Below are positions 30,953 to 52,510 of a stretch of DNA of 64,000 nucleotides, in pieces. Origin of the DNA: Dehalococcoidia bacterium (GTDB lineage Bacteria; Chloroflexota; Dehalococcoidia; Lucifugimonadales; UBA3495); the NCBI GenBank assembly GCA_965203985.1, contig CBDBDS010000006.1:16588-80587 (forward strand), read 5' to 3'. Numbering within the stretch: position 1 is the stretch's first letter; each line of letters begins with the position of its first letter. The position numbers were made by a program, and so were the translations under genes. The notes beneath the pieces were generated by a model. It saw only the letters and a program-made list of their open reading frames with translations. It ran no database searches and had not been told where the DNA came from.

Positions 30953-31399
30953 GGCATAGGTAGCGGCGACTTTTTCATCCTACAGCAGTGCACGCCAAAA
31001 ACTTGGCGACAATTGGACCTGCCAACCTGACGGGGTCCCATCTGTGCCGAAACTGCCGGCACTCGATGACGATTTCCGCCACAGTTGCAGAAAGCGGATT
31101 AGTTCAGAAACTGTCACCCGGTTGACAGTGGCCAACGCCGTCAACAAGGCCGTGGTCAACGCCCTGTCCGCCCACGACGTCGTTCAGCGAGATTTTCGCG
31201 TAGCTTGATACTACTCCGGCACGTGGAGGTTGTAGTACTGCCCCTTTTCGAGGTCGTCCTGCGGACACTGTGGGGTTCTTTCGGTAACGGCATTGGATAC
31301 GCGGCTTCTCGATGGTTGCCGGCATGGAGGAGTTTTCTCCTCCGGCCATACCAGGGAGACCGGTACTGCGGTTTGCTGCTGATGCTTGCGCGTCGTTGT

Positions 31400-31668
31400 A
31401 ACAGGGTGCCACGCTTGTGGGCGACGTTCCGGCCGGAAATTGCGGCGGCGCCTTAGGTGGAGTTGGTCAGGTTCCTGGTTCCGGTGTCCTTGACGGCGAT
31501 GAGCGCGTGGTCTTGGACGATCTTCGAGGTGTGATGCGGGTGTTCGGCGGCATTCATGGTCTTGATGCGCCCACGCTTTACGTGCCGGAGCTGCGAGGGT
31601 CGAACACAGTGAGTGTGTTCCCCAGAAGCAGGTCCACTGACGAGGTGGCATACGCAGCGGAAACGGGT
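31400..31668 (+). pseudogene. IS5/IS1182-family transposase remnant, part left of the nested IS
   Basis: Nucleotide and protein similarity to the full copy at 50628-52510 (LYVPELRGSNTVSVFPRSRSTDEVA versus LVARVPGRPNRKCFPKDDFGIDLVA). The left limit is uncertain. Confidence 0.5.
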
Positions 31669-32919
31669 CTAGTATTACAGTCGAGCTTGTGGTGAAGGGT
31701 TCGAAAAGCGTCTCTTGTAATGGCACAGTCTGGCCCGGGCCTGATGCCGCCGTCTCCACCCTGACCATTGGATGATCAGGGCAGGACTGCCTGGGGGCGA
31801 CCACACCAGCCAGCGTAGCAGCCGTCTGACCTTTGCCGGCCACCCGCACCAGTTCCGCCAGCGGCGTGTCCCCAAGGCCGTAACAGGCGTAGTAGGCCCG
31901 GTCCTCGGGGTCGGCGATGCAGCGGCCCACGAGTCGCCAATGTCCTTGGCTCGCCTCAGACCCGGGGCGGATTGATACTCGGCTCCAATCGTAAAGGCGC
32001 GGTCCTTTGCTGCCCGGCCCAGCACTCAGCCGCTGCCAGTCCTCCTCCGCTATCCGCTGGGCCAACTCCCGGGCCGCCACTTGGGCCGAGCCACCCTCCG
32101 TATCCGCCCACTGCGGCTCATTGCTCTTCACTGCCAGCACGTAAGGCCGGCCCTGCTCCTCCAGCCACCGGCGCAACCGGCGGTCTTTGCCGTACACCGT
32201 ATCTCCAGCCACCCAGCCAAAGGGCGCCCCAGCCGACACCCTCCGGGCAATGATCGTTTGGGCCAGTTGCACTTTGGTGCGGAAGGACACTCCTTCCGGC
32301 ACCCCAGCTTCTCGCCGACGCTCCACACCCCCCGCCAACCCCCGGGGCAAATACAACTCCTGATCCGGAAAGGCGCCGCCGTAACCGCTGCCATAGGCCA
32401 AAAACACCCTGATCTGACCGTTCTCCACCTTTCCCCCGTCCCGCTGTACTGACGCTTTACCCCCACCGACTTCCTCCCCTCCTTCAGAAACCCCGTCTCA
32501 TCCACTACCAGCACCGCTTCCGGGTCCCCCAGATGCTCCACCACGTACCCTTGCAGAACCTGCCCGCGTGCAAACGGGGGTCATCCCGCACCTCATCCGC
32601 ATCCCAGTGGTACACCGCCAGCAACCGCTGCACCCCGTCGGGCGTGGCGTCGCCAGCGTATTCCGCCAACTGCCACCCATTCTCGCGCTCCACCGACCCC
32701 AGCAATCCTTTCGGGTACGACAGCACCCGCTGGCGCCACTCACTGCGGCTAAAACGATGACCGATCCGCGCGTGCAGCGCCGGCAGCCCAACTTCCCACT
32801 CCAGTACTTCCCTCAGGACAGCCTCTCCCTCCAGCAACGCCCGACCCATCTCCAACCCCTCCGCTCTCACCAGTAGTCATGGACCTATCCTATCTAACTA
32901 ACCGCGACTGTAATACTAG
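31669..32919 (-). mobile_element. IS701-family insertion sequence, degenerate, nested in the IS5/IS1182 remnant
   Basis: Perfect 15-bp inverted repeats: CTAGTATTACAGTCG at 31669-31683 and CGACTGTAATACTAG at 32905-32919. The transposase reading frame is split over at least three frames. Confidence 0.75.
31690..32870 (-). pseudogene. IS701-family transposase, multiple frameshifts
   Basis: Pieces 32505..32870 (FSRSEWRQRVLSYPKGLLGSVERENGWQLAEYAGDATPDGVQRLLAVYHWDADEVRDD), 32128..32544 (HLGDPEAVLVVDETGFLKEGRKSVGVKRQYSGT) and 32428 downwards (IRVFLAYGS...WVAGDTVYGKDRRLRRWLEEQGRPYVLAVK). Confidence 0.8.
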
Positions 32920-34215: not shown

Positions 34216-35400
34216 TCAAACTGCCGTTGTGTCAACAATATCATCATCGTTATCGTCCTGGCGCAAAGCTTTTTGAGACTCTTCCATGATGCGAGCGAAC
34301 TCGTCGGCGGCTTCGGCCTGCCACCCCGGCAGGGCGTGGGCATAGGCCCTCATCGTGATGGCAGTGTTGGCGTGTCCCAACCGTTCGGAAATCACTGCGG
34401 GGTGGATGCGTTTGTTGAGCGAGACCGACGCGTGGAAGTGGCGGAGCTTGTGGGGGCTGACCTCGGGATGGCCGACCTGCTTCCCCAATCCTTGCACCAG
34501 GCGAGTCAGCCGCATGGGATTGACCCATCTGCCCAATTCGTCGGCGAACACTATCCCCTGGTCCTCATACGCGCCGGCCAGCAGGCTTTTGTTCTGTTCC
34601 TGGCGTTCCTTATGCTGACGCAGCACTTCCAAACTGCCGGCGTCCACATTGATCGTCCGGTTTCCGCGGGCGGTTTTGGGCTTGGTCAACTGCAGCCCGT
34701 TGGATCGCCTTCCCAATGAGGATACTATCCGAATCGTAGCATTTTCGAAGTCCACGTTGCTCCACACCAGAGCCAGAAGCTCCCCGCGACGGATTCCGGT
34801 GTAGGCCAGCAGATGCAGGGCGGCATACAGCCAATCGTCCTGTTCGGCCGCCAAGTCCAGCATCCGGAGCACAATGTCCACTGGGGGCGATTCGGCCTCA
34901 CGGTTCGGGTCCGGGGGCGCCTTCGCCGCGGCGACCGGATCACGGATGATCAACTCCATGCGCAACGCGTGTTTGATTGCTCCGGACAATACCACCCGCA
35001 CCAGGTTGACGCCGACGGGGTCCATTCCATGCTCCAGTAGCTTCTGTTGCAGAGCCTGGACGTGGCTTGGAGACAGTTTGTTCAGTTCAATGTGCCCGAG
35101 TGCCGGCTGCAGGTGGTTCTTGACGATGCCGCGGTAGCGATCCTCGGTGGCCTGGCTCAAATGGCCGACCACGCATTCGGTCAGCCAGCGCTCCAGCCAG
35201 TCGCGCATCAGGATCCGCTCGTTGGACGGAACGACGCCGCCGTCCAGTTCGGTCAGCAGTTCTCGCAGACGCCGTTGGGCTTGCTTCTTGTTGCCCTTGA
35301 CCGTGACGAACCGGCGGACGCGTTTGCCACGTTCGTCTCGGCCGAGATCGAGGGTGATCTCCCAGCTATTTTGTCCCCGTTTCCGAATGCTTCCCGTCAT
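34216..35400 (-). CDS. int: tyrosine site-specific integrase
   Basis: 394-aa ORF. N-terminal SAM-like arm/core-binding region (IRKRGQNSWEITLDLGRDERGKRVRRF). Catalytic region with ...GIRRGELLAL... and HKLRHFHAS...LGHANTAITMRAYAH. Confidence 0.9.
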   Translation of the reverse strand: MTGSIRKRGQNSWEITLDLGRDERGKRVRRFVTVKGNKKQAQRRLRELLTELDGGVVPSNERILMRDWLERWLTECVVGHLSQATEDRYRGIVKNHLQPALGHIELNKLSPSHVQALQQKLLEHGMDPVGVNLVRVVLSGAIKHALRMELIIRDPVAAAKAPPDPNREAESPPVDIVLRMLDLAAEQDDWLYAALHLLAYTGIRRGELLALVWSNVDFENATIRIVSSLGRRSNGLQLTKPKTARGNRTINVDAGSLEVLRQHKERQEQNKSLLAGAYEDQGIVFADELGRWVNPMRLTRLVQGLGKQVGHPEVSPHKLRHFHASVSLNKRIHPAVISERLGHANTAITMRAYAHALPGWQAEAADEFARIMEESQKALRQDDNDDDIVDTTAV

Positions 35401-35698
35401 AGTGTCTCCAAATTACCAGCGCGAGTCGTCGCGCTGTCAACCGGACAGCTGTCACCTTTTCGATCCCGTTCCTGAGAAGAGCGTCGTGGCCGCATAAACC
35501 GCGTCCTCGTCGACGGTTCAGGCGCATATCTTGCGGACACCAGCCCGGCAGCCCGGTCGCGCCAATCCGAAGCACCGACCATTCGGCCTCGTCGGAGCAG
35601 CAGTCCGTAGCCGAATGCACCATCACGCCTCGATCTGGGGTGCGTCTACAGGATATGGCTGACAGAGTTTCACATTGCCATTCGCAACGCGCGGCCAT

Positions 35699-35899
35699 TC
35701 ACGAATTTCCCGCGCCCTCGCCAGGCTCAGAATCCGGTTTACTCAGTAGGTCGTCCAAAGCCCAGCGTGGGATCACCAGGCGCCGACCGAGGTTCACTGC
35801 GAAAATCTCCTTCTGGTAGATGGCCTCCCGGATCTTCCATTCGGAGACTCCCAGGGCCTCGGCGGCCTCCTTAACAGAATATGCCAGTCGTTGTGTCAT
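35699..35899 (-). CDS. xis: excisionase/MerR-type HTH DNA-binding protein
   Basis: MTQRLAYSVKEAAEALGVSEWKIREAIYQKEIFAVNLGRRLVIPRWALDDLL. It lies immediately upstream of int. The start at 35899 is preferred over 35935. Confidence 0.7.
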   Translation of the reverse strand: MTQRLAYSVKEAAEALGVSEWKIREAIYQKEIFAVNLGRRLVIPRWALDDLLSKPDSEPGEGAGNS

Positions 35900-36829
35900 C
35901 GGGTATGCCCTCCTATCATGTGGTTCCGGTTTCATCGCGTGCCGACAATTCGACGATCGATCCGGTTATCGCGGCGGCGGTGTTCCTTAGATCGTCTCCG
36001 GACACGAAATGTTTCTCCGCCTGCACATGGTAGGGAATCCCGGCGAGAGCGCGCTGACGGGGTACGGAAACCGGGGTGCAGCGCCAGTAACTGCGAGCCC
36101 AGATGCATCGTGGAACAGATTTCCGGCGCCGTCGGTTCTTACGGTGCCGCCGCATTCTCAAGGCATGGTGGATCGCGTTCGGACGAAGGCAGACCTCGGC
36201 CCTTGCAGTGGGCTTCTCCATAGCGTCCACGCCGCCAGGTTCAGGCGGACCGGTGATGCTCACCAATCCCCAATATGCAATCAACTGATGTGCATGGTGA
36301 GCCGTTCAGGGAAAGGCGGCTACACGCCGGTGTGCCAGTTTCACGCAGCGTAGAACCGCAGTTGACGCTCCGGGACAGTGAGGCCGCGCTCGTTCCTATG
36401 GGCCTTTGCCATGGCCGGGGCGATCAGACCACCGCCGGATCACCTGGTAAACCGTTCTTCTCGTCCACTGTCTACACGGGCAATCGGCGCTAATGACGTG
36501 CGTCGACGTACCCGACGCGGACGGCGTGACGATTGAAAAGGCAACCATGTGGTCGCGAGAATGGCAAAATTGGCGCACGAATCGCCGCGGAACCGGCCGG
36601 GTGCGGGAGCGGCTACGCCATCGGAACAAGGTCAACGTTGGAGAAAGGCCGTTTGATCCGACCGTAACCCGTGCTGCCCGACAATCCGCCGGTTGGTGAC
36701 CAGGCCGACACGGGGGCGGCGAGGACTATGATCAGCAAGGCCGCCTATTCCTGAGGATCTGGCCTCGGAAGTTGACCGGCACGCGCGCGAGGGATACGCG
36801 CGCAGGTCGGAAGGGTTCGGGGTTCGGCA

Positions 36830-37486
36830 TCAACCGGGTTTGGCATTTGCCGCGCGATAGAGAAATCGGGTTAGCCCGATACGACTGGGTAATTTTGCGA
36901 TCTCCTCGTCAGTCATTTCCGATATTGCCAGTTCGAGCGAAGTCCTGGCTCGGCCAGCCGGCGTTGCGGCGTGTTCACCTGCCGTTGTCGAGTGCGGCGC
37001 ATATCCATCGCTGTAAAACCAATCTGGCGACTTGACGTAGAGTCGCGATAATTTCTCGAGGATCTCCCGCGATGGTCGTGAGGCGCCGTTTTCATAGCGT
37101 AATACCGTATTGCGGTTCACGCCGATCCTCTCGGCCGCCTCTGCTTGCGTGAAACCTTCTTCCCTACGCGCTTCCCGCAGCAATCGCCCGTTTAGGATTG
37201 GCTTCTTCCGTTTAGGATTGTAAGAGTGCGATTCTTCGTAAAACGAGGCGAAATCGCCTAACTGCTCGCCAAGTAATTCGCCAAGCCGCCGCTTGTTCTC
37301 CTCGCTGGGTTCCACTCTGCCTGATTCCCAGTTTCGTACGGTCTGGGTCGAAACGCCCAGCTCCGCCGCCACATCCTCTTGGCGAAGGCCCGCAGGAATG
37401 CGAGCATGGCGCAGTTCCAGGCCGAAGGATCTCAATGCCACCCTCGCACCGGCAGCGGCCACGGTGTTTGCACCATGTATTTTCAT
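36830..37486 (-). CDS. tandem XRE-family HTH regulator (two HTH_3 domains)
   Basis: LRQEDVAAELGVSTQTVRNWESGRVEPS and FTQAEAAERIGVNRNTVLRYENGASRPS. Divergent from the tandem-unit array. Confidence 0.8.
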   Translation of the reverse strand: MKIHGANTVAAAGARVALRSFGLELRHARIPAGLRQEDVAAELGVSTQTVRNWESGRVEPSEENKRRLGELLGEQLGDFASFYEESHSYNPKRKKPILNGRLLREARREEGFTQAEAAERIGVNRNTVLRYENGASRPSREILEKLSRLYVKSPDWFYSDGYAPHSTTAGEHAATPAGRARTSLELAISEMTDEEIAKLPSRIGLTRFLYRAANAKPG

Positions 37487-37533
37487 TGTGTTCCCCTTGG
37501 TCCGTGTATGATGGCTGATGCGCGCCAGGTCAC

Positions 37534-37564
37534 TTGCGCACGACCGCTCCTGCGATTATAGAAT
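37534..37564 (+). promoter_or_regulatory. promoter-like site, unit 1
   Basis: TTGCGC-N19-TAGAAT (alternatively N17-TATAGA). It faces away from the XRE gene. Confidence 0.4.
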
Positions 37565-37570
37565 CGTCGC

Positions 37571-37830
37571 CTCCAATTTGCAACATAAACAATAATCGTT
37601 TCATACGTTCCACTACCCGTATTTATGCGACAAAGCGGTATTTCAGACGAAAATCGATGCGTTCGAGCGGGAATGGGGGGGCAACCGTCCCCCCGGAATT
37701 TCCGGGTAGTCGGGAAGTACGAGGGACGACCCGAAGCGAGCGTTGCAATCGTCGGCGTCCGGCAGGGGAAAGCGCTGGTAAAGCCAGCTAACCAACGCGC
37801 GAGAAGCAACCATGAGCCGTCAGAGTTTTT
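37571..37830 (+). ncRNA. candidate ~260-nt non-coding RNA, copy 1 (unclassified)
   Basis: Conserved core from just after the -10 to a T5 run (37826-37830). It contains TTGCAAC ... GTTGCAA long-range complementarity, TCGGG-N15-CCCGA and GCTGG-TAAAG-CCAGC hairpins. No ORF is conserved across copies. Confidence 0.3.
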
Positions 37831-37993
37831 GGGATGCCCCCGTAGCGTTTATGTTGGCTGATGCGCGCCAGGTCGCTCGCGTCGACGAGACATTGCCGCT
37901 GGTAGCCGCGGCAACCTGATTTTCAGCACAAATCGTGCTACATGAATAATAATCGATTACCGCTGCGCACACCCCTGGTCATGCTACGCCAAG

Positions 37994-38024
37994 TTGACCA
38001 CGAGCGGTCCTGCGATTGTAGAAT
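37994..38024 (+). promoter_or_regulatory. promoter-like site, unit 2
   Basis: TTGACC-N19-TAGAAT (alternatively N17-TGTAGA). Confidence 0.45.
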
Positions 38025-38030
38025 CGTCGC

Positions 38031-38288
38031 CCCCGTTTTGCAACATGAACAATAATCGTTTCATACGTTCTACAACCCGCACATATGCGACAAAGCGGTA
38101 TTTCAGACGAAAATCGATGCGTTCGAGCGGGAATGGTCGGCAACCGCCCCCCAGCAGTTTCCGGGTAGTCGGGGAGTACGAGGGATGACCCGAGGCGAGC
38201 GTTGCAATCATCGGCGTCCGGCAGGGGAAGGTGGTGGTAAGCCAGCTAACCAACGCGCGAGAAGCAACCATGAGCCGTCAGAATTTTT
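38031..38288 (+). ncRNA. candidate non-coding RNA, copy 2
   Basis: Same core as copy 1. T5 run at 38284-38288. Confidence 0.3.
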
Positions 38289-38454
38289 CGGATGCCTCCC
38301 TGCAGCGTTTATGTTGGCTGATGCGCGCCAGGTCGTTTGCGTAGATGAGACATTCCCGCTGGTAGCCGCGGCAACCTGATTTTCAGCACAAATCGTGCTA
38401 CATGAATGATAATCGGACTCCGCTGCGCACACCCCCTAGTCATGCTGCGCCAGC

Positions 38455-38485
38455 TTGATCACGAGTGGTCCTGCCATCGTAGAAT
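38455..38485 (+). promoter_or_regulatory. promoter-like site, unit 3
   Basis: TTGATC-N19-TAGAAT. Confidence 0.4.
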
Positions 38486-38491
38486 CGTCGC

Positions 38492-38750
38492 CTCACGTTT
38501 GCAACACAAACAATAACCGTTCCATACCTGTAACTACCCGCACATATGCGACAAAGCGGCGTTGCAGGCGAAAATCGATGCGTTCGAGCGGGAATGGTGG
38601 GCAACCGTCCCCCCGGAATTTCCGGGTAGTCGGGAAGTATAGGGGACGACCCGAGGCGAGCGTTGCAATCGTCGGCGTCCGGCAGGGGAAGGCGCTGGTA
38701 AAGCCAGCTAACCAACGCGCGAGAAGCAACCATGAGCCGTCAGAATTTTT
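38492..38750 (+). ncRNA. candidate non-coding RNA, copy 3
   Basis: Same core as copy 1. T5 run at 38746-38750. Confidence 0.3.
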
Positions 38751-38913
38751 GGGATGCCCCCGTAGCGTTTATGTTGGCTGATGCGCGCCAGGTCGCTCGC
38801 GTCGACGGGACATTGCCGCTGGTAGCCGCGGCAACCTGATTTTCAGCACAAAGCGTGCTACATAGATAATAATCGATTACGGCTGCGCACACCCCTGGTC
38901 ATGCTACGCCAAG

Positions 38914-38944
38914 TTGACCACGAGCGGTCCTGCGATTGTAGAAT
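38914..38944 (+). promoter_or_regulatory. promoter-like site, unit 4
   Basis: TTGACC-N19-TAGAAT, identical to unit 2. Confidence 0.45.
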
Positions 38945-38950
38945 CGTCGC

Positions 38951-39209
38951 CCCCCGTTTTGCAACATGAACAATAATCGTTTCATACGTTCTACAACCCG
39001 CACATATGCGACAAAGCGGTATTTCAGACGAAAATCGATGCGTTCGAGCGGGAATGGTCGGCAACCGCCCCCAGGAATTTCCGGGTAGTCGGGAAGTACG
39101 AGGAACGACCCGAGGCAAGCGTTGCAATCATCGGCGTCCGGCAGGTGAAGCCGGTGGTAAAGCGGGCTAACCAACGCGCGAGAAGCAACTGCGGGACACC
39201 GGAGTTTTT
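38951..39209 (+). ncRNA. candidate non-coding RNA, copy 4 (3' end diverges, leads into the ParB-like gene)
   Basis: Same core up to GCGCGAGAAGCAAC, then a different tail ending in a T5 run at 39205-39209. It lies ~135 nt upstream of the ATG at 39344. Confidence 0.3.
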
Positions 39210-39343
39210 GGGGTTCTCCTGACGCCGGCTGGCGCCGGGCTTTCGATTGGCCAGCTGATCGACGATCGGGCCCCTCCCTGCCGCTTTTTCATAATGTCCG
39301 TGTGCCCGATTTCAGCGGCACAGTCGAAACGAGGCGGTGCATC

Positions 39344-40375
39344 ATGGCGGTACAGGGTAAACGGCGCGTTGCGGAAACCTCCCATGGTCAACTGGAACTG
39401 ATACCTGGTTCGGCGGGACCCGACACAGGGGAAAAGGGTCAACCGGGAAAATCCGACGTTCCGCCGCCACCGGCTGTGGCGCGACGAAACGGGGACCACG
39501 AGAGTGACTACACGCAGCACGAGCTGGGTCGGCTGCTCGGGAACCGTGGTCCGGCGTCCTGGGACCGGTTGCGCGCCGCCGTGCGGGGACAGTTGGTCGC
39601 GGACTGGGAGAGCGGCGCAGATACCGTTGTGGACGTGATCCTGTTGAACGACCAGGTCCTCTGGGATTGGGACCGGTTCACGATCGCCAGGGAGCTGGAT
39701 CTGAGCGTGCGATTTCAGGAATACGTCGGCGGCGATCCCGTCGCCTTCCTGTGTGCTCAGGGGCTGCACGAACGGCAGCTGAGCCAGACTGGAAAAGCGC
39801 TGATCGTCGTGTCCATGTGCGAATGGCGCGGCAGGGGACGGCCCCAAAAATCCACAGTGGCTGTGGATTTTCCCAATGACACGGGCCGACGGTATGCGAT
39901 CGACGAGATGGCAGACCTGGCCGGAGTGGGTACCACGCTGATCAGCCAAGCCAAGGTAATTTGCTCGCTCGGTTTGGTGGAGGACGTTGCAGAAGGGAAA
40001 GTCGGCTTTGCGGAGGCGTACCGGCGTGCCCGAGTGGTGCGGGACTCGGAATGGGAACGAGACGTGTTGAACGGGGGAATGCCCTTTGATGACGCGTATG
40101 CGCGTGCTTTGGCGAACACACCCGATGTTCCTGAGGTACGCCCTCGTCAAACGAGATCCGTCAGGTCGCTGATCGAAGAGGTGGGTGAGTTGGAGCGGTC
40201 CAAAGCTGGGTTGGTGGAGGAGTTGCGGTTGCTGCGGGAGGACAACGCGGCGCAACGGTCGGCGGCGGCTGCCACTGCCATGGCACTGGAGCGAGAGCGA
40301 ATCAGGGCTGAACAAGCGGAGGCCGAGGTGAAACGACTGCGCGCGGCCCTCACACGTGCCGGACTACAGGCCTGA
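39344..40375 (+). CDS. ParB-N-terminal-domain-like protein with C-terminal coiled coil
   Basis: ILLNDQVLWDWDRFTIARELDLSVRFQEYVGGDPVAFLCAQGLHERQLSQTGKALIV follows the ParB/Srx-like phage-protein pattern (I..dg.i.DG..R..A...lg....f....g.d...f....N..RR.L...Q.A). The ATG at 39344 has GAGGCGG upstream. The track start is the GTG at 39302. Confidence 0.55.
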   Translation: MAVQGKRRVAETSHGQLELIPGSAGPDTGEKGQPGKSDVPPPPAVARRNGDHESDYTQHELGRLLGNRGPASWDRLRAAVRGQLVADWESGADTVVDVILLNDQVLWDWDRFTIARELDLSVRFQEYVGGDPVAFLCAQGLHERQLSQTGKALIVVSMCEWRGRGRPQKSTVAVDFPNDTGRRYAIDEMADLAGVGTTLISQAKVICSLGLVEDVAEGKVGFAEAYRRARVVRDSEWERDVLNGGMPFDDAYARALANTPDVPEVRPRQTRSVRSLIEEVGELERSKAGLVEELRLLREDNAAQRSAAAATAMALERERIRAEQAEAEVKRLRAALTRAGLQA

Positions 40376-40545
40376 CCATGGCAGGTCGTCAAACCAACCG
40401 AGAACTCGATGGTCATTCGTTGCAGCGCAAACATAACGGTTCACCAGAATGCATTGATCGCGTCATGCCGCGACACGGTCCCGGATAGCTGGGACCACTA
40501 AATTCCGTAACATCGGAACAGGACAGCATTTGACAGGAGGCGACT

Positions 40546-41562
40546 ATGGCACTAAGAGTGACCAAAGACGGAAAAGCATTGGTTTTCCAGCCGGAACAAC
40601 GCGAACTGTGCTCGAGGGAGGATACTGCTCAGACCCTGAGGAATCTCCACGGTCTCGGGGCGGTGTTTGCTCTGGACACTGTCGGATGGATCCAGAGATA
40701 CCAGTTGTTCCTCCGTATCGGTTCGGTCGAATCCGGAATCGGTCCACGCATCACGCATTCCTTTGAGGGAGTGCAACAAGCCGAGAAAAAAGCCTCTGAT
40801 TGGCTCCAGCTAAAGGCAGGTGAATACGGGCTGGTGCAGCCCCTGACTCTGTCTGATCACACCATGCTGCCGATCGCGGATTGTTCGCTCGAGGATGCTC
40901 GCGACCGGTGGGGGGAAGTATTCGCGGCCTTGGTCGCCCGTCCAGACGACTTGTGGCCCGGCAAGTTAGGTGTGCGAGTTGTCCTGCGACCGGCAGGTCG
41001 GGATTGGAGAGAGCACTTTATGAAGACCGCTCCCGTCGGCGATGAGGCACGGGGGACGAACATCGATCGCGAACGATGGGCTGACAGGGCTGGCGGGACG
41101 CCGTTCCACGCGCAAATTCAACTACTGGCGATCTGTCAGGACGATCCCACCCGGGTAGATCTCGCGAAGGCGGATGTGGCTAGGTTGGCCGAGCTGGTGC
41201 CTGCACTGACGGGGCAACGCGACGCTTGGAAACTTGGTACCAGTCTCGAGCGTTCCATGACATGGGCGGCTCTTAGATCACCAATCAGGTCTGCCCGCAA
41301 GCCAACTCTACCCTGGCCAGAGCTAAAGTTTCTGCCGGACGAGGGAGATTCGCCATATACGCTCAGTGCCGAGGAGGCGGCCGCGCTGTGGCCGGCTTGG
41401 ATGCCACGGGTGCGATCGCGTCACAGAACGCCGCAACATCTGACCACGACCGATGTGGAACTGCCCGCCGCACCTGAACGCGAGGGCACAGCCACGCCGG
41501 CCCGATCCGATGCAGCGGAGACGCGGCATGATTCCGCAACGAGTGCCGGATGGTTGCAGTGA
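40546..41562 (+). CDS. hypothetical protein
   Basis: 338-aa ORF with a strong AGGAGG SD. No family recognised. Confidence 0.65.
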   Translation: MALRVTKDGKALVFQPEQRELCSREDTAQTLRNLHGLGAVFALDTVGWIQRYQLFLRIGSVESGIGPRITHSFEGVQQAEKKASDWLQLKAGEYGLVQPLTLSDHTMLPIADCSLEDARDRWGEVFAALVARPDDLWPGKLGVRVVLRPAGRDWREHFMKTAPVGDEARGTNIDRERWADRAGGTPFHAQIQLLAICQDDPTRVDLAKADVARLAELVPALTGQRDAWKLGTSLERSMTWAALRSPIRSARKPTLPWPELKFLPDEGDSPYTLSAEEAAALWPAWMPRVRSRHRTPQHLTTTDVELPAAPEREGTATPARSDAAETRHDSATSAGWLQ

Positions 41563-41672: not shown

Positions 41673-42293
41673 CTATGACGCCGATGCGGACCGGAAGCCC
41701 ATCCGGGGCTTTCGGGATGGGACCAAGTCGACTGTATCTATGCCCTCCATGAGCGCCGATACCTCCGCCAGTGCCTGCCACCGCTCCAGGGGCTGTTGGA
41801 GCCGGCCTCGGGCCGCGGCATCGGCCAGCTTACCGGTGCAGCCCTCCAGGCCCCAGAGTAGCGGGATGCGCCCGCGGCGGGCCAGGCGCTCGATACGCTG
41901 GTCGGGGTCCGTATCGAATAACGCCAGGACCGGCGCAATCGGCACCGGGCGGTTCAGACCCTCCTGCAGGGTGTCTCTGATCGACAGCGCCTCCACCCGG
42001 GCCTGTTCCAAGGGCGACGGCGTGATCCGAGGTCCCGACCCGGTATTGACGCGCCACTGCCCACCTTGTAGGAAGTGGGGGGCATACCTCACCGTCAGAC
42101 AAAAACGGCCGATGTTCAACAGCCAGGCGCCGAACACCGGCTCCGGCCAGTTGGCCTCGGGACCCCAGTAGCGCAGGAAGAAGGCGGGCACGCCGTCTGT
42201 GCCGCCGCGGGTCAGCAGGACAGCGGTGGCCCGATCCTGGGCGGCGTTTCCGTTATCGTGGTGGTGGTCGGGATGTAGATGTTCATGTTGCAT
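41673..42293 (-). CDS. NERD-like paralogue C (catalytic residues degenerate), His-rich N-terminus
   Basis: AAGGAG SD. It aligns with 45665..46414 and 42719..43450 over IGRFCLTVRYAPHFLQGGQWRVNTGSG...SPLEQARVEAL...IAPVLALFDTDPDQRI...PLLWGLEG. Confidence 0.6.
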   Translation of the reverse strand: MQHEHLHPDHHHDNGNAAQDRATAVLLTRGGTDGVPAFFLRYWGPEANWPEPVFGAWLLNIGRFCLTVRYAPHFLQGGQWRVNTGSGPRITPSPLEQARVEALSIRDTLQEGLNRPVPIAPVLALFDTDPDQRIERLARRGRIPLLWGLEGCTGKLADAAARGRLQQPLERWQALAEVSALMEGIDTVDLVPSRKPRMGFRSASAS

Positions 42294-43726: not shown

Positions 43727-45508
43727 TCATGCTCGTGTCCCACGAGGAGGGACGCCTTGACCACCGCGTGGTCCCATGCGCACCACGACCCGCTTCGCGC
43801 GCAAACCCGTAACCCGCCCCGGCGGTGGTGGCTGGACCCGATGCGGGTCGCGAGGAGCTTCTGCCGGACCGGTCCGGAAGCGCTGGCGCGCCAACGCCCT
43901 CAACTCTTCGCCGGTGAGATCCGCCCAGGGCCTTGCCATCCGCCGGATGGGATCGAACCGCGCCCGGGGCGGCTCTCCCGAGCTCAGGACCAGCAAACGC
44001 CTGGCCCGGGAAAAGGCCACGTAGTGCTGCCGCATGTGATCGAAGCCGGCGATGCGGTCGTCGGGCTCCAAGGGCCTGCGCCGGGCGTAGGGCAGCAATA
44101 CCCGGCCCACCGGGTCAACGTCGCGGTTGTTGAAGTCAAGGGAACCGGCCACCACCACGTCCCACTCCAACCCCTTGGCCCGATGGATGGTGGTGACCGC
44201 CACCTCGCCGGGTCCCCGGCGTCGACCGGTCCCATCGGCAGTGGAACCTCGCCTGGGGAAGGCGGCGGGAATGTCGGCATAGTCCAGGGCGTCCATGTAG
44301 CGGCCCGCCACCTCGTCGCGCACGCTGTGCAGCAGCAGGGCCACCTGGGAATAGTCGCCGATCACACGGTTGCGTTTCAGGAACCGCAGCAGGTCCACCA
44401 GTTGGTCCTCCTCGTCCCCCGGACTCCTCCCTTCGATGGAGATCAGGGCCGGGTAATCGGCGTCCTCCGCACGCCGTGGGGTGATGGTCTTTTCGTGCCG
44501 GAAGGATGGGAGGCCGGGATTGGGATTGGACCAGTTGGCCGACGCCATCCACCGGTCGCAGGCCCGAACTATGACGCCGTGGCTGCGGTGGTTGGAGGTG
44601 AGGCTCACCACGCGGCAGTCGGGGAAGCGTTGGGGGAAATTCAGGATGTTCTCCACAGTGGCGCCGCGGAATCGGTAGAGGGCCTGGTCCTCGTCGCCCA
44701 CCACGCACAGGTTGCCGTGGGTTTGGGACAGCTGCGTGAGCAGACGCTCCTGGACGTGACTGGTGTCCTGGTATTCGTCGCACAACAGGTGCACTATCCC
44801 GCCCGAGATCTCAGCCGCGGTCTCCTCGTCGTCCTCCAGGAGTTCCACCAACCACCGTTGCAGGTGGCCGAAATCGGCCGCGCCTTGATCAAGCAACAGG
44901 TTCTCGTAGCGCCGGTAGGATCGGCCCAACGCGGCGGTGAAGCGCCGGCCCGAGTCGATGAGTTCCCGGGGGTCGATGAGTTCGTCGCAGATGCGGTCGA
45001 AGTACTTGGCCGCATTGCGCACCACGGCGTCGGGCCGCCGCCATCCCCGTCGTTCCAGCCGGCCCAGGTCGGGACCGAAGACCTCACCCAGGTGGCGGGC
45101 CAGCAGGCCCATCCTCTCGTCTTCGCTCAGGACCCGGAACCGGCCACGTAAGCCAATGCGTTTACCCAGACGCCTCAGCTGTTGGGCGCAGAAACCGTGG
45201 AGTGTGGTGATGCGCACCTGCGACGCGTCGCCGTCATAGCCGGCGGCCGAGACCGTGGCGTCGAAGCGCCGGCGCAACTCCCGGGCCGCGGCCCGGCTGT
45301 AGGTGCATAACAGCAGGTTCCGGGGCTCGACTGCGCCCAGCATCAACAGGTTGGCCGAACGCCGGACGATGGCCAGGGTTTTGCCCGCGCCCGGTCCGGC
45401 AATGCCCAGGACGGGACCCTCAAGGTGTCCGATCAACTCAACCTGCCGATCGTCCGCCTCCGGCTGCAGGCGGAGAATGGCGGGGGCTATGGTGTTGGCG
45501 CTGCTCAT
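43727..45508 (-). CDS. UvrD/Rep-family SF1 helicase
   Basis: Walker A GPGAGKTLAIV. Also LLCDEYQDTS, VVGDEDQALYRFRGATVENI, TIHRAKGLEWDVV and YVAFSRARRLLVLS. Confidence 0.9.
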   Translation of the reverse strand: MSSANTIAPAILRLQPEADDRQVELIGHLEGPVLGIAGPGAGKTLAIVRRSANLLMLGAVEPRNLLLCTYSRAAARELRRRFDATVSAAGYDGDASQVRITTLHGFCAQQLRRLGKRIGLRGRFRVLSEDERMGLLARHLGEVFGPDLGRLERRGWRRPDAVVRNAAKYFDRICDELIDPRELIDSGRRFTAALGRSYRRYENLLLDQGAADFGHLQRWLVELLEDDEETAAEISGGIVHLLCDEYQDTSHVQERLLTQLSQTHGNLCVVGDEDQALYRFRGATVENILNFPQRFPDCRVVSLTSNHRSHGVIVRACDRWMASANWSNPNPGLPSFRHEKTITPRRAEDADYPALISIEGRSPGDEEDQLVDLLRFLKRNRVIGDYSQVALLLHSVRDEVAGRYMDALDYADIPAAFPRRGSTADGTGRRRGPGEVAVTTIHRAKGLEWDVVVAGSLDFNNRDVDPVGRVLLPYARRRPLEPDDRIAGFDHMRQHYVAFSRARRLLVLSSGEPPRARFDPIRRMARPWADLTGEELRALARQRFRTGPAEAPRDPHRVQPPPPGRVTGLRAKRVVVRMGPRGGQGVPPRGTRA

Positions 45509-45664
45509 GTAAGGATATCTCCAAAGTCTGGTTTCCGGTTTCGGACCGGTTTCGGGACCCGTCGCCTACGCCAACGGCGGCTCCCACGTGCAAATTGGGT
45601 TAAGCGCCTTGAAACGGGGTTGCGGTCACCCACCGGGTCGTAGGCGGGGCGGAAACGCCGGCGG

Positions 45665-46414
45665 TCAACCGGGATGGTCGGGCCTGGTGGAGGCGCGTTG
45701 TCCGATTTCCAGTCTCAACGCCTGGCCCCGGACCTCCAGCACGCGCTTCCCGTTGACCGCAAACGCCAGGACTGCCACGCTCGCCGGCGCGGAATCCGAG
45801 CCGGCTTCGGCATCAGCGTTGGATTCGGAATCCTCCCCGAACTCGCCCAACCGGATCTGGCCGTCGGAGATGGCGCAGACCTCCCGGGCGATGCGCTCCC
45901 GCGACAACCGGTTCGATATGCCCCGGGCGGATGCGATCTCGGCCAAGTCCGATACCAGGCTCGCCACGCCCCAGACCAGGTACACCCCCTTCCGCGCGGC
46001 CAGGCGCATGATGGCCTGGTCGGGTTCCATGTCGGGAAACACCAGCACGGGGACGACGAACGGGTTGTAGCCGGCGTGAGCCTGTTCGGCGATTTCATCG
46101 TGGAGATCCAGCGCCGCCAGCCAGGTCTCATCCAGCGGCGATGTCCCAACAGCCTGTACGCCGTTTCCGGTTTTCCGATGCCACTCGCCACCAATGAGTT
46201 GGTGGTGGCCACCCTTCACCTGTAGGGCGAAGCGGTCCAGACCGGCGATCCAGACGCCGAAGTCGAGTTCGATATGTCCGTAACCACGTCGCCACTCGTA
46301 ATAGACGAAACCCTGGCGGTCGCTGCCAGCCAGGGCTTCGTAAACTCGCTGCTCGGCTCGCCGTTTTGGCCTTTTGCGGCGACCGGACGGGAACGCTTTC
46401 GGGTACATTTTCAT
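45665..46414 (-). CDS. NERD-like paralogue A (best-preserved core)
   Basis: AAGGAG SD. HIELDFGVWIAGLDRFALQVKGGHHQLIGGEWHRKTGNG...SPLDETWLAAL...VVPVLVFPDMEPDQAI...YLVWGV follows the NERD pattern (D...E/Q.K..sG.i.g...W....nP..Q). Confidence 0.7.
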   Translation of the reverse strand: MKMYPKAFPSGRRKRPKRRAEQRVYEALAGSDRQGFVYYEWRRGYGHIELDFGVWIAGLDRFALQVKGGHHQLIGGEWHRKTGNGVQAVGTSPLDETWLAALDLHDEIAEQAHAGYNPFVVPVLVFPDMEPDQAIMRLAARKGVYLVWGVASLVSDLAEIASARGISNRLSRERIAREVCAISDGQIRLGEFGEDSESNADAEAGSDSAPASVAVLAFAVNGKRVLEVRGQALRLEIGQRASTRPDHPG

Positions 46415-46576
46415 GAGTCAACTCCTTGGTTATGTGCTGATTGTCAATTTTCACCATCTTTGATCGGGTAAACGGCGAGATTTTCACGGTCTTTGACCAC
46501 CCTGGGAGCCGCAAGGGCGACCATTGGTGCACTTCAAACCAGAGGTGCAGCGATGGCGTACAAGGAGGTTCCCCGA

Positions 46577-48114
46577 ATGGAGATAAAGGAAGTCATCCGC
46601 CGTTGGCAGGCCGGAGCCAGCCCAGGGGAGATCGCGTCAGGCACTCGGCTGTCCCGCAACACGGTGCGCAAGTACCTGGCGGCGGCACAAGCATAGGGCG
46701 TCAGCCGGGACGGACCGGTTCCCGACGAGGAGCAACTGAGCCGGCTGGCGGCGGTCGGTCAGACCGGGCCGCGGCAGGTGGAGACGCCCAGACAGGATCT
46801 GTTGGAGCCATGGGCAGGCCAGATCTACCAATGGCTGACCGGCGACCGGCTACAGATGGCCCGCATCCACGAGTTGCTGACCATCCGCGGCTGTGCGGTG
46901 TCTTATCCATCGCTGCGGCGTTTCATCATCAAGCGCAACTGGCGCAAGATCGGCAAGACCACGGTGCGGATGGAGGACACGCCGCCAGGTGAAGTGGCCG
47001 AGGCGGACTTCGGTCGGTTGGGCCTGATCAACGACCCAGCCATGGGCAAACGCAGGGTGGTGTGGGCCATGGTCATCGTGCTTTGCCACTCCAGACACTG
47101 CTTCGTCTGGCCCATGGTGCAGCACAAGCTGGAGGACGTCATCGCCGGCCTGGAAGCAGCCTGGGCTTTCTTCGGCGGGATGCCGCACTATCTGGTGATC
47201 GACAATTTCCCCGCCGCGGTGGTCGGGCCGGACCCATTGGACCCCCACTTCACCAAGGGCTTTCTGGAATACGCCCAGCACCGGGGCTTCATCGCCGACC
47301 CGGCGCGGACCGGCCACCCCAAGGACAAGCCGAAGGTGGAGCGTAAGGTCCGCTACACCCGGGGCGCTTCTTCAAGGACGCCGAATTTCACGGTCTGGCC
47401 CACTTGAGAGCCGAGACCCAGCGATCGTGTCTTCGGGTGGCAGGCCAACGGATCCACGGTACCACCCGCAAGAAGCCGCTGGTGGTCTTCCAGGATGAGG
47501 AGCGCCACACCCTCTTTCCCTGGGACGGCGAGCCCTACGACATCGGCGACTGGCGCACCGCCAAGGTCCATCCGGATCATCACATCCAGTGCCAGCAGGC
47601 GCTGTACTCGGTGCCGTCCCATCTCTGCCCGCCGAGACAGGAGGTGGAAGTCCGGCTGGACAGCAAGCTGGTACGCATCTACCACCGGGGCAAGCTGATC
47701 AAGACCCACCTCCGCCAGCCCAAGGGAGGCCGGTCCACCGACCCAGAAGATTATCCCGCCGTGCTGGCTCCCTACACCACCAGAGCGCCGGACCACATCA
47801 AGCGGGAGGCGACGAAGCTGGGGCCGGCGGTGGACGAATTCGCCCGGCGTCTTTTCGCCGGAGATCACCCCTGGTCCAAGATCCGGCAGGGATACAAGCT
47901 GCTACGCCTGGGTGAGCGCTACACCGCCCAACGCCTGGACGCCGCCTGCTGCAAAGCCCTCAAAGTGGATCTCATCGACGTGCGCCGTCTGGAACGCATC
48001 CTGGTGCAGGCCCTGGAAGATGAAGCCATGCCCCAACTTCCGCTGCCCATACCAGCCGGCCGCTTCGCCCATCCCGGCAGCGCCTTCGCTCTTGCTATAG
48101 GAGGCCAGTCATGA
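46577..48114 (+). pseudogene. istA: IS21 IstA transposase with in-frame TAG and one frameshift
   Basis: MEIKEVIRRWQAGASPGEIASGTRLSRNTVRKYL (AAGGAGG SD). In-frame TAG at 46694-46696. Frame change at the CGGGG run near 47355-47365 (...KVERKVRYTRG / RFFKDAEFHGLAHLRAETQ...HGTT). Confidence 0.8.
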
Positions 48115-48878
48115 CTCGCGTAACCGAACTCACGCCACTACTCAAGCGGCTGCGACTGGGGCAAATGGCCGCCACCCTGCCCGAGCGTATCGCCCTGGCC
48201 AGAAGGGAGCAACTGGACTACGTCTCCTTCCTGGAAATCATCCTCAGCGACGAGGTCAACCGCCGTGATCACCGCCGCATCGAACTGCGCCTCAATGGCG
48301 CCGGCTTCCAGGAGACCTGTCGTCTGGAAGACTTCGACTGGTCGGCGTCAATTACTCTTGACCGTCGCCTGCTGGACGCCGCCTTCTCATTAGAGTTTCT
48401 CGACAGGCACGAGCACGTCCTCCTGGTGGGACCGGCTGGCGTCGGCAAGAGCTTCCTCGCCCAGGCCCTGGGCTATGCTGCTGTCCGCGCCGGATACACC
48501 GTGCGCTTCAGCCACGCCGACGACTTCTTCAAGTCCATGACACAGGCCAGAGTGGACAACTCGGTGGACCGCGCTTTCCGCTCATTTCTGACGCCCGACC
48601 TGCTCATCCTCGACGATCTGGGACTGCACCGCCTCACCGCCCAGCAGTCCACCGACCTCTACGAGCTGATCCTCAATCGACATCGGTCGTCCAGCTTCGT
48701 CATCACCAGCAACCGGGCCGTCGACGAGTGGCTAGGTCTCTTTGACGACCCCATCCTCGGCAATAGCGCCTTGGACCGCCTGGCCAACGCCAGCTATCAG
48801 ATCGTCATCGAGGGCACCAGCTACCGGGAACGCCTGTCCCCACACCGCGTCCTGCTGGGCGCTGCAGGAGGTGATTGA
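48111..48878 (+). CDS. istB: IS21 IstB ATPase
   Basis: 255 aa. Walker A GPAGVGKSFLAQALG, LLILDDLG, ITSNR. Its start overlaps the istA stop. Confidence 0.9.
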   Translation: MTRVTELTPLLKRLRLGQMAATLPERIALARREQLDYVSFLEIILSDEVNRRDHRRIELRLNGAGFQETCRLEDFDWSASITLDRRLLDAAFSLEFLDRHEHVLLVGPAGVGKSFLAQALGYAAVRAGYTVRFSHADDFFKSMTQARVDNSVDRAFRSFLTPDLLILDDLGLHRLTAQQSTDLYELILNRHRSSSFVITSNRAVDEWLGLFDDPILGNSALDRLANASYQIVIEGTSYRERLSPHRVLLGAAGGD

Positions 48879-50631: not shown

Positions 50632-52510
50632 AAATTAGGCCGGAAACCCCGGGTGACGAAGGCGGTGGTTATACTCCGGGCCATCTGAGATAGTGGAGCG
50701 ATGCGGGACCATGCTGGGCGAGCGATACGAGCAGAGGGGGCATTGGGAAGCGGACCAGTTGTACCTGGACCTGGTGGGCCGAGACACCTTCTATGGGCTG
50801 CTGGCGTCATTGCGGGACCAGCTGTTCCGCGACGCCGATTTCGGTGAGCTGTACTGCTTGGACAATGGCCGGGTCAGCGTGCCGCCGAGCCTGCTGGCCA
50901 CGGCGCTGCTGTTGCAGACCCACGACAAGGTGAGCGATGCGGAGGCCCGGGCCGACTTCGACATCCGGTGGAAGGTGGCGTTGGGGATTGAGATCGAGGA
51001 TCGTCCCTTTGCCAAGAGCACGCTGCAGGTGTTCCGCGCCCAGTTGATCCTGCACGACAAGGTGAGTGAGGTGTTCGAGCAGAGCCTGCGGCTGGCTCGG
51101 GAGGCGGGCTACCTGAAGGGAAAGCGTGGGATGCGGGTGGCGATGGGCACGACGTACATCCTGGGTCGTGGTGCGGTGAAGGACACCTACAATCTTCTGG
51201 CCGACGGCATCGTGATGCTGATGCGGGCGCTGTCGGCAGTGGAGGGTGTGCCGGTGCGGCGCTGGGCCGAAGCCCACGGTTACCAACGCTACGTGGGCTC
51301 CAGCGTAAAGGGTGAAGCGGCCATTGACTGGTCCAACCGTCGGGCGCGGCGGAGGCTTTTGGGACAGATTGTGGCGGATGCCGACCGGCTTCTGGAGTTG
51401 GCTCGGCGGTCCCAAGATGGACTGCCCGCCGACAGCAGTGAGCGGCAAGCCATAGTTGAGGCGGCGGAGTTGCTGGGCCAATTGCTGCTCCAGGACGTGA
51501 AGCGTGGTGGGGACGGCGCTGGTGATGATGCCAATGCTGACGGCGGCGAGGGAGTGAGCCTGAAAGAGGGAGTTAGCAAGGACCGGATGGTGTCGGTGCA
51601 TGATCCTGAAATGCGCCACGGCCACAAGAGCAAGCGCAAGCGCTTCGACGGGCACAAGGCGGCGGTGGTTGTAGACACCGACAGTCAATTGATCACCGCG
51701 GTGGACGTGCTGCCGGGCAACGCTGCCGACAATCTGGGGGCGCTGGAGTTGGTGGAACAGAGCGAGGCCAGCGCCGATGTGGCGGTGGTGGAAGCCATGG
51801 GGGACACCGCCTATGGCGACGGCGGCACCCGCCAGGCTTTCGCCGACGCCGGGCGCAAGCTGGTGGCCCGAGTGCCGGGTCGTCCCAACCGGAAGTGTTT
51901 CCCCAAGGATGACTTCGGCATCGACCTGGTGGCGGGAAGCTGTACCTGTCCGGCGGGTCAGATCACCCGCACCATTGTGCCAGCGGGGAAACGCACCGAC
52001 AGTACTGGGACGGTGCATCGGCTGCAAGCCTTCCGGTTCGACGGCGCGGTGTGCCAGGACTGTCTGTTGCGGTCCCGATGCTTTGCGGCCAAAGGCATGC
52101 AGGGACGGCAGGTGCTGATCCACCCGCAGGAGGCCTTGCTGCAAGAAGCCCGGGCGTTGCAGCAGAGCGCCGACTACGATCAGTACCGGCAACTACGGGT
52201 GGTGGCCGAGCATCGACTGGCTCGACTGGAGCAATTGGGCATCCGGCAAGCGCGCTACTTCGGACGGGTCAAGACCAAGTTCTAGTTGTACCTGGCGGCC
52301 ACGATGGCTAACTTGACCCTGCTGGCGAACCAAACCGGTGTGGTCGGTGATTCTGGCGACAACCCCGACGGCGTCGTCACCACCGCTGAAATTGGCGGCG
52401 AACACGGCTTGGACGGCCACTTTCTGCCAGCCTGGATGCAGGCTTGGCTCAGGTCGCCAACTCTGGCGCTATCGCTCTTCCCAACCAAGGCTTTCCGGCC
52501 CGCTTTCTAG
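50628..52510 (+). mobile_element. IS5/IS1182-family insertion sequence (1883 bp)
   Basis: Imperfect inverted repeats: CTAGAAATTAGGCCGGAAAC at the left, and the reverse complement of GGCTTTCCGGCCCGCTTTCTAG at the right. Single transposase gene. Confidence 0.8.
50693..52285 (+). CDS. IS5/IS1182-family transposase (DUF772-like N-terminus + DDE), premature TAG near the C-terminus
   Basis: LLATALLLQTHDKVSDAEA...RWKVALGI...STLQVFRAQL, HKAAVVVDTDSQLITAVDVLPGNAAD, AMGDTAYG. The TAG at 52283-52285 corresponds to CAG in the paralogous remnant (33310 region). The frame continues coding-like to 52510. Confidence 0.85.
   Translation: MERCGTMLGERYEQRGHWEADQLYLDLVGRDTFYGLLASLRDQLFRDADFGELYCLDNGRVSVPPSLLATALLLQTHDKVSDAEARADFDIRWKVALGIEIEDRPFAKSTLQVFRAQLILHDKVSEVFEQSLRLAREAGYLKGKRGMRVAMGTTYILGRGAVKDTYNLLADGIVMLMRALSAVEGVPVRRWAEAHGYQRYVGSSVKGEAAIDWSNRRARRRLLGQIVADADRLLELARRSQDGLPADSSERQAIVEAAELLGQLLLQDVKRGGDGAGDDANADGGEGVSLKEGVSKDRMVSVHDPEMRHGHKSKRKRFDGHKAAVVVDTDSQLITAVDVLPGNAADNLGALELVEQSEASADVAVVEAMGDTAYGDGGTRQAFADAGRKLVARVPGRPNRKCFPKDDFGIDLVAGSCTCPAGQITRTIVPAGKRTDSTGTVHRLQAFRFDGAVCQDCLLRSRCFAAKGMQGRQVLIHPQEALLQEARALQQSADYDQYRQLRVVAEHRLARLEQLGIRQARYFGRVKTKF

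Follow-up and report, generated by a model that had tools for sequence, protein, structure and literature searches.

The tandem array and its homologues

The window analysed here, a stretch of 64 kb from contig CBDBDS010000006.1 of a Dehalococcoidia bacterium, contains an integrative element in which the divergent genes of an XRE-family regulator and a ParB-fold protein are separated by four tandem copies of a non-coding unit. Comparison of a profile of this region to homologous loci identified the unit as the XRE/ParB-fold intergenic region itself. The coordinates of all features are compiled in Table 1.

Tandem Repeats Finder (TRF) reported a single tandem array (37539-39189) with a period of 460, 3.6 copies, and 88% matches, in agreement with a preliminary description of this DNA, which had deduced a period of ~460 bp from the recurrence of TAGAAT at 37559, 38019, 38480, and 38939; all four occurrences can be read in the sequence. 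Searching the window with a unit profile (nhmmer) resulted in four matches, all located in the array and none elsewhere. Delimited by GTTTATG junctions, one unit of 343 bp is followed by three units of ~460 bp, and the earlier count of four 460-bp units thus applies to units 2-4 but not to unit 1. This XRE-proximal copy lacks ~117-130 bp that are present in units 2-4. Lost with them (at 37531-37540) are a terminator-like hairpin, the first of two 20-bp motifs, and the second TGCWAC repeat. Due to this deletion the XRE 5' untranslated region (UTR) would comprise ~60 nt in the window element compared to ~190 nt in its relatives. The copies in the array differ by 5-14%, and the array is therefore neither a fresh duplication nor a collapsed assembly.

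The left end of each unit corresponds to the XRE ribosome-binding region and its right end to a position ~130 bp before the ParB-fold start. In all cases the left edge is marked by the box GCTGATGCGCGCCAGGTC, which is homologous to the stretch just upstream of the XRE ribosome-binding site and, according to the alignment, is kept beside the XRE start in all relatives. The occurrence of this box before each unit and at the XRE start, as described earlier, is real, but it is explained by the fact that each unit begins at the XRE ribosome-binding region.

As comparison loci (L-numbers) we used the loci of homologues of the ParB-fold protein (P-numbers), together with a profile of the region. The hosts are Dehalococcoidia metagenome-assembled genomes. 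In seven related elements the unit was observed in single copy, measuring ~580 bp when the leader that precedes the ParB-fold gene is counted; the loci concerned are L005/L006, L015/L016, L019, L004, L017, and L007. Amplification is restricted to the window with four and L001 with three copies (TRF period 460), and in case of L002/L011, L012, and L013 the control region is interrupted by insertion sequences. The distant homologues L008 and L009 (45% protein identity) possess neither the XRE gene nor the unit. Related units beside XRE and ParB-fold genes are hence found in other genomes as well, mostly in single copy. No relatives were obtained from the JGI metagenomes and IMG/VR by protein-based and DNA-pattern scans, no DNA matches to the unit from phage and plasmid collections, and nothing relevant on an XRE/ParB-like/tandem-repeat system from the literature.

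The window cores and the two upstream cores of L001 constitute one sequence type, with 86-95% identity among each other and 65-80% identity to the remaining cores; the ParB-fold proteins of the window and L001 are 87% identical. As this amplified sequence type is common to the window and L001, the multi-copy state is shared by both elements.

The composition of the L001 array deserves a separate remark. Its upstream units (4504-5429) are 86-95% identical to the window units, and its gene-proximal unit (5430-5890) is of another sequence type with 88% identity to the single unit of L005. The L001 array is thus a mosaic of two sequence types, which points to recombination between element lineages.

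Transposase or IS21 IstB genes were encountered immediately upstream of the ParB-fold gene in three relatives, where they border on the control region or cut it short (L002 at ~5560-5653, L012 at 6710-7300, and L013 at 4700-5300). N-terminally shortened ParB-fold proteins were observed as well (277 aa for P0011 of L012, 303 aa for P0010 of L002, and 249 aa for P0014). The copies hit by insertion sequences may be in decay, or the control region may be an insertion hot spot.

Several short motifs recur within the unit. The 20-bp motif TGCWACAYNAAYNATAAYCG has seven matches compared to 0.12 expected, all on one strand and none outside the array in the 64 kb. Within a unit its two copies lie at a distance of 103-104 bp, and the one on the right covers the -35 of the XRE promoter; both are kept in L005, L015, L019, L004, L007, and L017. 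Each full unit furthermore contains four TGCWAC direct repeats, whose spacing of 46/58/47 bp recurs in L005 and L004 and whose density (3-4 per unit) contrasts with a background of 0.18-0.48 per kb. The 13-bp palindrome CCGGAATTTCCGG is indeed perfect in units 1 and 3 only, as stated before. Considering all copies, it is a near-palindrome of the form CCnGGAA-T-TTCCnGG, of which the right half ATTTCCGGG is invariant; GGAATTTCCGGG is found in the array only (5 matches, 0.61 expected), and TTTCCGGG occurs once per unit in 10 out of 11 distinct homologous loci that retain the core, the exception being L014. Outside these loci, TTTCCGGG is also situated at position 5625 of L008, ~375 bp upstream of the distant ParB-fold gene (~0.02-0.03 expected); this may be a coincidence or a half-site travelling with the ParB-fold protein.

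Promoter-like sites were found on both strands of each unit. For the XRE-directed minus-strand site, three out of four copies were detected by a promoter scan, and the copy of unit 3 (TTGCAA-17-TACGAT) was read from the sequence; in units 2-4 the site reads TTGCAA-17/18-TACAAT or TACGAT. Both hexamers, their distance of 17-18 nt, and positions A2 and T6 of the -10 are kept in every homologue of the two clades (A and B). The plus-strand site emphasised in the preliminary description, TTGCGC/TTGACC/TTGATC-N19-TAGAAT, is present in all four units, but its TAGAAT overlaps the -10 of the better minus-strand promoter, its 19-nt spacer lies outside the scan range of 16-18, and it is not conserved: clade B lacks TAGAAT altogether, and L005, L019, and L015 have TCTCAT, TCGCAT, or TCGCAC in its place. 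Since the relatives have lost TAGAAT but kept the minus-strand hexamers, the minus-strand promoter is the conserved feature.

Except for unit 1, each unit carries a terminator-like hairpin in its spacer. On the plus strand 44 of 49 cells pair, with 7 wobble cells, compared to 38 of 49 on the minus strand, and the wobble pairs thus favour the plus strand. Hairpin and T-run are present on this strand in clade A. In single-unit elements the plus-strand hairpin separates the XRE promoter from the start codon of this gene (5485-5520 in L005), and no plus-strand gene is evident upstream of it; one possibility is that it terminates antisense transcription across the XRE gene.

The preliminary description had unit 4 lead directly into the ParB-like gene. 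This gene does follow, but a unique, non-repeated leader of 128 nt lies in between. The -10 candidate of the leader occurs as CATAAT, CATGAT, or CACAAT among the loci, and the leader is kept even in loci that have lost the remainder of the control region to insertion sequences (L012 6616-6706, L013 4554-4688).

Coding potential and RNA structure of the unit

Several observations indicate that the repeats do not encode a protein, as had been concluded from indels between the units. These indels are present in the unit alignment and shift all reading frames, and the most conserved block (TTTCCGGGTAG; TTTCCGGG) is read in three different frames by units 1, 2, and 4. Column variability across the homologues lacks a period of three, gene callers predicted no genes within the unit region of single-unit loci, and a frame conserved among homologues with a codon-position bias was looked for and not found. 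The plus-strand MRQSG... and minus-strand MVASRALVSWL... open reading frames (ORFs) were discarded as candidates due to frame changes between the units and their lack of conservation in L005.

Emphasis had also been placed on a reading of the units as paralogous regulatory RNAs, structured and with a core of 260 nt that ends at the T5 run, but this reading is contradicted by the following results. The failure to match the core to an RNA family is reproduced by Rfam, which gave nothing at the gathering thresholds in the whole window; in E-value mode (36000-41000) the best match was radC with 17.9 bits (gathering score 40, E 2.9). For 15 homologous cores, RNAalifold calculated a consensus energy of -1.56 kcal/mol for the plus strand and of -0.31 kcal/mol for the minus strand; such values are effectively those of unstructured sequence. 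Sliding-window alifold never reached z < -3 in the core, neither for all sequences nor for clade A or clade B, and located structure signals only outside the core, namely in the spacer hairpin and the non-repeated leader. Minimum free energies compared to shuffled sequences resulted in z = +1.42 and +1.44 for the plus- and minus-strand core, respectively, and +0.85 for the 360-nt putative transcript. The four helices suggested earlier (TTGCAAC/GTTGCAA, TCGGG/CCCGA, GCTGG/CCAGC, and the palindrome) show covariation at the level of shuffles (0.074 compared to 0.076, with 294 out of 500 shuffles reaching or exceeding the observed value). Consensus structure, covariation, and folding energy being negative and TAGAAT not being conserved, nothing supports a new structured RNA family.

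Individual candidates for RNA features were rejected as well. The long-range pairing of TTGCAAC with GTTGCAA exhibits no covariation, and the hexamer TTGCAA, itself a palindrome, forms the -35 of the XRE promoter. The T5 run, previously regarded as the end of the core RNA, is not preceded by a stem and is replaced by GTTTC or ATTTC in other elements; a hairpin with T-run is situated ~65-95 nt further in the spacer of the next unit instead. The T5 run is not a relic of the XRE start-codon region either, since L014 and unit 4 place the T-run in the ancestral core.

Flanking genes of the integrative element

The integrase and excisionase-like genes (34216-35935) form the left end of the integrative element, and their order is identical in L001, L004, L005, and L006. 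The XRE regulator matches PHROGs families of transcriptional repressors and regulators.

The gene of the ParB-fold protein most likely starts with the ATG at 39344, as judged from the identity to P0001 and the homologue alignment. According to its predicted fold, the product consists of an N-terminal ParB/Srx-like domain, a helix-turn-helix (HTH), and a C-terminal coiled coil. An AlphaFold2 model with 16 homologues as input (predicted local distance difference test, pLDDT, 71) gave Spo0J, ParB, Noc, and KorB as top Foldseek matches (probability 1.0, E 8e-5) with a template modelling (TM) score of 0.44 relative to the target, and by tblastn the protein is 28% identical to plasmid genes annotated as ParB/RepB/Spo0J (E 2e-4). 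No Pfam matches were obtained even at E up to 1, no PHROGs matches were found, and a PDB sequence search matched the C-terminal coiled coil alone. The earlier label ParB-like is thus appropriate for the fold but is not backed by a Pfam match. Reading of the homologue alignment did not reveal a recognisable GERR/cytidine triphosphate (CTP)-binding motif.

Pfam and PHROGs searches identified neither a ParA-type ATPase (CbiA/ParA/AAA_31) in the ORFs 40546-41562, 41673-42293, 45665-46414, and 46441-46992 nor Rep, primase, or initiator families among the neighbouring ORFs. A UvrD-like helicase belongs to the conserved backbone of the element. It is adjoined by a 249-aa ORF without family match (both within 43727-46414), and the two are located at matching relative positions in L001, L005, and L006; a 593-aa UvrD-type gene is also situated at the edge of L008. 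Insertion-sequence debris on the flanks of the element (47404-48878, 50693-52285, and 31211-32428) comprises a C-terminal Mu-transposase fragment with an IS21 IstB gene as well as DDE_Tnp_1 and DDE_5 transposases. A short tandem repeat at 17818-17909 (20 bp x 4.6 copies, CATTACGGGACAGACCAGCC) is unrelated to the array.

Table 1. Features of the integrative element and of the array in the window (window coordinates).
Feature	Position	Strand	Evidence or remark
Tyrosine integrase	34216-35400	-	Pfam Phage_integrase 1.1e-20
HTH_17 excisionase-like gene	35699-35935	-	Pfam HTH_17 3.4e-10
XRE-family regulator, 218 aa, two HTH_3 domains	36830-37486	-, divergent from array	Pfam HTH_3 6.9e-29
Tandem array of the XRE/ParB-like control region	37504-39215	.	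TRF, unit alignment, nhmmer
Array unit 1	37504-37846		343 bp, internal deletion; bounds from GTTTATG junctions
Array unit 2	37847-38306		bounds from GTTTATG junctions
Array unit 3	38307-38766		bounds from GTTTATG junctions
Array unit 4	38767-39215		bounds from GTTTATG junctions
GCTGATGCGCGCCAGGTC box	37514, 37857-37874, 38317, 38777	+	4 exact matches, 0 expected by chance
XRE-directed promoter-like site TTGCAA-17-TATAAT	37555-37583	-	promoter scan; unit 1
XRE-directed promoter-like copies	38015-38043, 38476-38504, 38935-38964	-	units 2-4
Plus-strand promoter-like site, TTGACC-N19-TAGAAT in unit 2	37994-38024	+	read from sequence
Plus-strand promoter-like sites, other units	37534-37564, 38455-38485, 38914-38944	+	read from sequence
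Terminator-like hairpin TTGCCGC-N8-GCGGCAA, then CCTGATTTTC	37893-37924	+	terminator scan
Terminator-like hairpin copies	38353-38384 (one stem mismatch), 38813-38844	+	none in unit 1
20-bp motif TGCWACAYNAAYNATAAYCG	37579, 37936, 38039-38058, 38396, 38500, 38856, 38960	+	motif search
13-bp palindrome CCGGAA-T-TTCCGG (CCGGAATTTCCGG)	37693-37705, 38613-38625	.	perfect in units 1, 3
Degenerate palindrome copies	~38152-38164, ~39072-39084
Unique non-repeated leader of ParB-fold gene, 128 nt	39216-39343	+	conserved in 11 loci
Leader candidate -10 CATAAT	39290-39295	+	A2 and T6 invariant in 11 loci
Leader hairpin	39302-39321	+	T-A to C-G compensatory change in L004
ParB-fold protein gene, 343 aa	39344-40375	+	AlphaFold2/Foldseek, tblastn
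UvrD-like helicase, 593 aa	43727-45508		Pfam 4.2e-57

Interpretation and comparison with known systems

The array is probably the complete divergent control region amplified in tandem, which would act in cis as protein-binding DNA. This takes up what is observed, i.e., how the array is built, that intergenic regions present in single copy are homologous to it, and that signals of coding or of RNA structure are absent: for a conserved, non-coding region without RNA structure that is full of oriented repeats and located between two genes of DNA-binding proteins, cis-acting DNA is the simplest reading. The repeated leader and the protein-binding DNA array that had been listed earlier as alternatives come closer to it than an RNA, except that the unit turned out to be the whole XRE/ParB-like control region. 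As in a repressor-controlled divergent promoter region, a two-HTH XRE gene possesses its own conserved promoter, and a motif on the -35 of this promoter recurs 104 bp away. The repeated motifs at the XRE promoter presumably are operators.

From this arrangement we infer the identity of the binding protein and the effect of the amplification. The element is organised in the order integrase, excisionase-like gene, XRE repressor, control region, ParB-fold gene, and, later, UvrD-like helicase. The unit, with its leftward XRE promoter, two 20-bp motifs ~ten helical turns apart, four TGCWAC repeats, near-palindrome, and plus-strand terminator-like hairpin, would serve as a platform for DNA-binding proteins, most likely the XRE regulator, the ParB-fold protein, or both, and the bound proteins would set the expression of both flanking genes. 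The region may thus be the promoter/operator of the switch of the element and perhaps also a loading site of the ParB-fold protein. The array would supply four XRE-directed promoters in series, seven 20-bp motifs, four half-palindromes, and three internal terminators, and amplification from 1 to 3 to 4 copies would multiply binding sites and XRE-directed promoters. Expected consequences are a shift of the repressor-switch balance via more repressor transcription, more sites to be filled, and more places for ParB-type loading.

Some points weigh against this view. The pairing of particular sites with particular proteins is guesswork, and the palindrome is perfect in only two out of four units. 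At columns conserved in other elements the amplified units vary at 23% compared to 30% (p = 0.13); this depletion is not significant and thus gives no evidence of selection on the extra copies, whose amplification could be neutral. Furthermore, each internal unit is flanked by a promoter-like site and a terminator of the plus strand and may hence be transcribed. Finally, the independent homologues are few (~10, in two clades).

Bracketing of the internal units would also be expected if they were genes of unstructured plus-strand RNAs of ~355 nt, which would start after TAGAAT in units 1-3, cross the core and the unit junction, and stop at the hairpin and T-run of the next unit. The 3' part of such RNAs with the GCTGATGCGCGCCAGGTC box would be antisense to the XRE 5' UTR, and the RNAs could oppose the repressor or serve as decoys of the leader of the ParB-fold gene. 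TTGACC/TTGATC-N19-TAGAAT is found in all units of the amplified type, which are a sequence type of their own, common to the window and L001; a hairpin with T-run, whose wobble pairs fit the plus strand, follows ~355 nt downstream; and the boxes at 37857, 38317, and 38777 are identical to the box at 37514 in the XRE 5' region. Yet sigma-70 promoters are poorly served by a spacer of 19 nt, TAGAAT merely reads the conserved XRE -10 region on the other strand and has not been kept in L005, L019, L015, and clade B, structure is neither conserved nor unusually stable, and the antisense match is an automatic consequence of the repeat, all of which makes us consider these RNAs rather unlikely. If the additional copies were neutral products of unequal recombination or a repeat assembly artefact, the lack of a significant depletion of variable sites at otherwise conserved columns (p = 0.13) and the fact that most relatives manage with one copy would be accounted for. 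However, the window and L001, which were assembled independently and from different samples, both contain arrays, and units that differ by 5-14% are not collapsed or expanded identical repeats, which renders a misassembly unlikely; moreover, the multi-copy state seems to have persisted in two elements despite the expected instability of tandem repeats, and diverged arrays common to two elements speak against a transient accident. Taken together, a neutral or artefactual origin appears quite improbable.

Two further alternatives concern the type of protein-DNA complex. A centromere-like partition site of the parS/sopC type, on whose palindromes the ParB-fold protein loads in order to segregate or stabilise the excised circle, would agree with the ParB/Spo0J/KorB fold with HTH and the weak similarity to plasmid partition ParB genes, with the repeated near-palindrome and its invariant half-site adjoining the gene, and with the tandem-repeat centromeres known beside ParB-family genes, e.g., sopC of plasmid F. 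We consider this less likely than amplified control DNA, and unlikely overall, since Pfam revealed no ParA-type ATPase among the neighbouring ORFs and most relatives possess a single unit; in addition, known centromere repeats are ten times shorter than the unit, which moreover contains promoters, many homologues have a degenerate left palindrome half, and no GERR/CTP-binding motif could be recognised when the alignment was read. An iteron-type replication origin, with TGCWAC and the 20-bp motifs binding an initiator from an unannotated gene of the element, could make use of direct repeats of one orientation at ~5- and 10-turn spacing beside relatively AT-rich patches and of the UvrD-like helicase in the conserved backbone. 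It is likewise less likely, and in our estimation very improbable, because Rep, primase, and initiator families were not detected in the neighbouring ORFs; no DnaA boxes were seen, and one 20-bp motif coincides with the -35 of the conserved promoter, suggesting an operator instead. Arm sites of attP were considered too and are unlikely, as the array lies within the element, at a distance of 2 kb from the integrase gene.

Reading the array as amplified control DNA implies that it should not be catalogued as a new RNA family, which saves follow-up effort. The loci represent small integrative elements of uncultured Dehalococcoidia that form a family not characterised so far. In these elements the switch region, conserved and of unusual length and motif density, is situated between a two-HTH XRE regulator and a ParB-fold protein without detected ParA partner, and has been amplified three to four times and kept in one lineage. 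If the copy number tunes the repressor balance or ParB loading, recombination would provide the element with a simple way to adjust its own induction threshold, and the elements would form a natural copy series (1, 3, 4). With little confidence, one may even speculate that the control region has become a copy-number-tunable regulator, acting through ~355-nt antisense RNAs or through loading sites for a ParA-less ParB-fold silencer, in which gain or loss of 460-bp units sets the induction threshold.

Among known systems, tandem small RNA (sRNA) arrays such as LhrC1-5 of Listeria and PrrF1/2 of Pseudomonas encode short RNAs (~100-150 nt) with conserved stem-loops and seed regions. The array resembles them in its head-to-tail repeats, each with a promoter-like site and a terminator-like hairpin, but neither a structure nor the plus-strand promoter is conserved, and the homologue of the unit is an intergenic region present in single copy. 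The sopC locus of plasmid F and crr of satellite phage P4 consist of tandem units of 43 bp and ~120 bp, respectively, both without promoters. They share with the array the tandem direct repeats with short motifs beside a gene for a DNA-binding protein of a mobile element, whereas the unit described here measures 460 bp, represents a complete intergenic regulatory region, and is single-copy in most relatives.

KorB of plasmid RK2, whose operator is a 13-bp palindrome and which represses at a distance, may be regarded as the nearest analogy. Similar to KorB/OB (RK2, with KorA) and ParB/parS, DNA with a 13-bp palindrome adjoins the gene of a ParB-fold HTH protein, this gene is accompanied by that of another small HTH regulator, and the site need not be located at a promoter. 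In contrast to these systems, sequence searches did not place the protein in the Pfam ParB families, a ParA partner was not found, the CTP-binding motif is not recognisable, and the palindrome, a candidate binding site only, is imperfect in half of the units.

With the switches of temperate phages and integrative elements, e.g., lambda cI-OR-cro and integrative and conjugative elements (ICEs) of the ImmR type, the element has in common an HTH_3/XRE gene divergent from its other genes, a conserved regulator promoter overlapped by a repeated motif, and integrase and excisionase genes nearby. It differs in that the intergenic region comprises ~580 bp even in single copy, the first rightward gene encodes a ParB-fold protein and not a small Cro-like one, and the whole region including promoters and terminator is amplified three to four times; the operators are putative here. 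In kind, the region is a repressor-controlled divergent promoter region, which is unusual in its great length, its ParA-less ParB-fold partner, and its tandem amplification.

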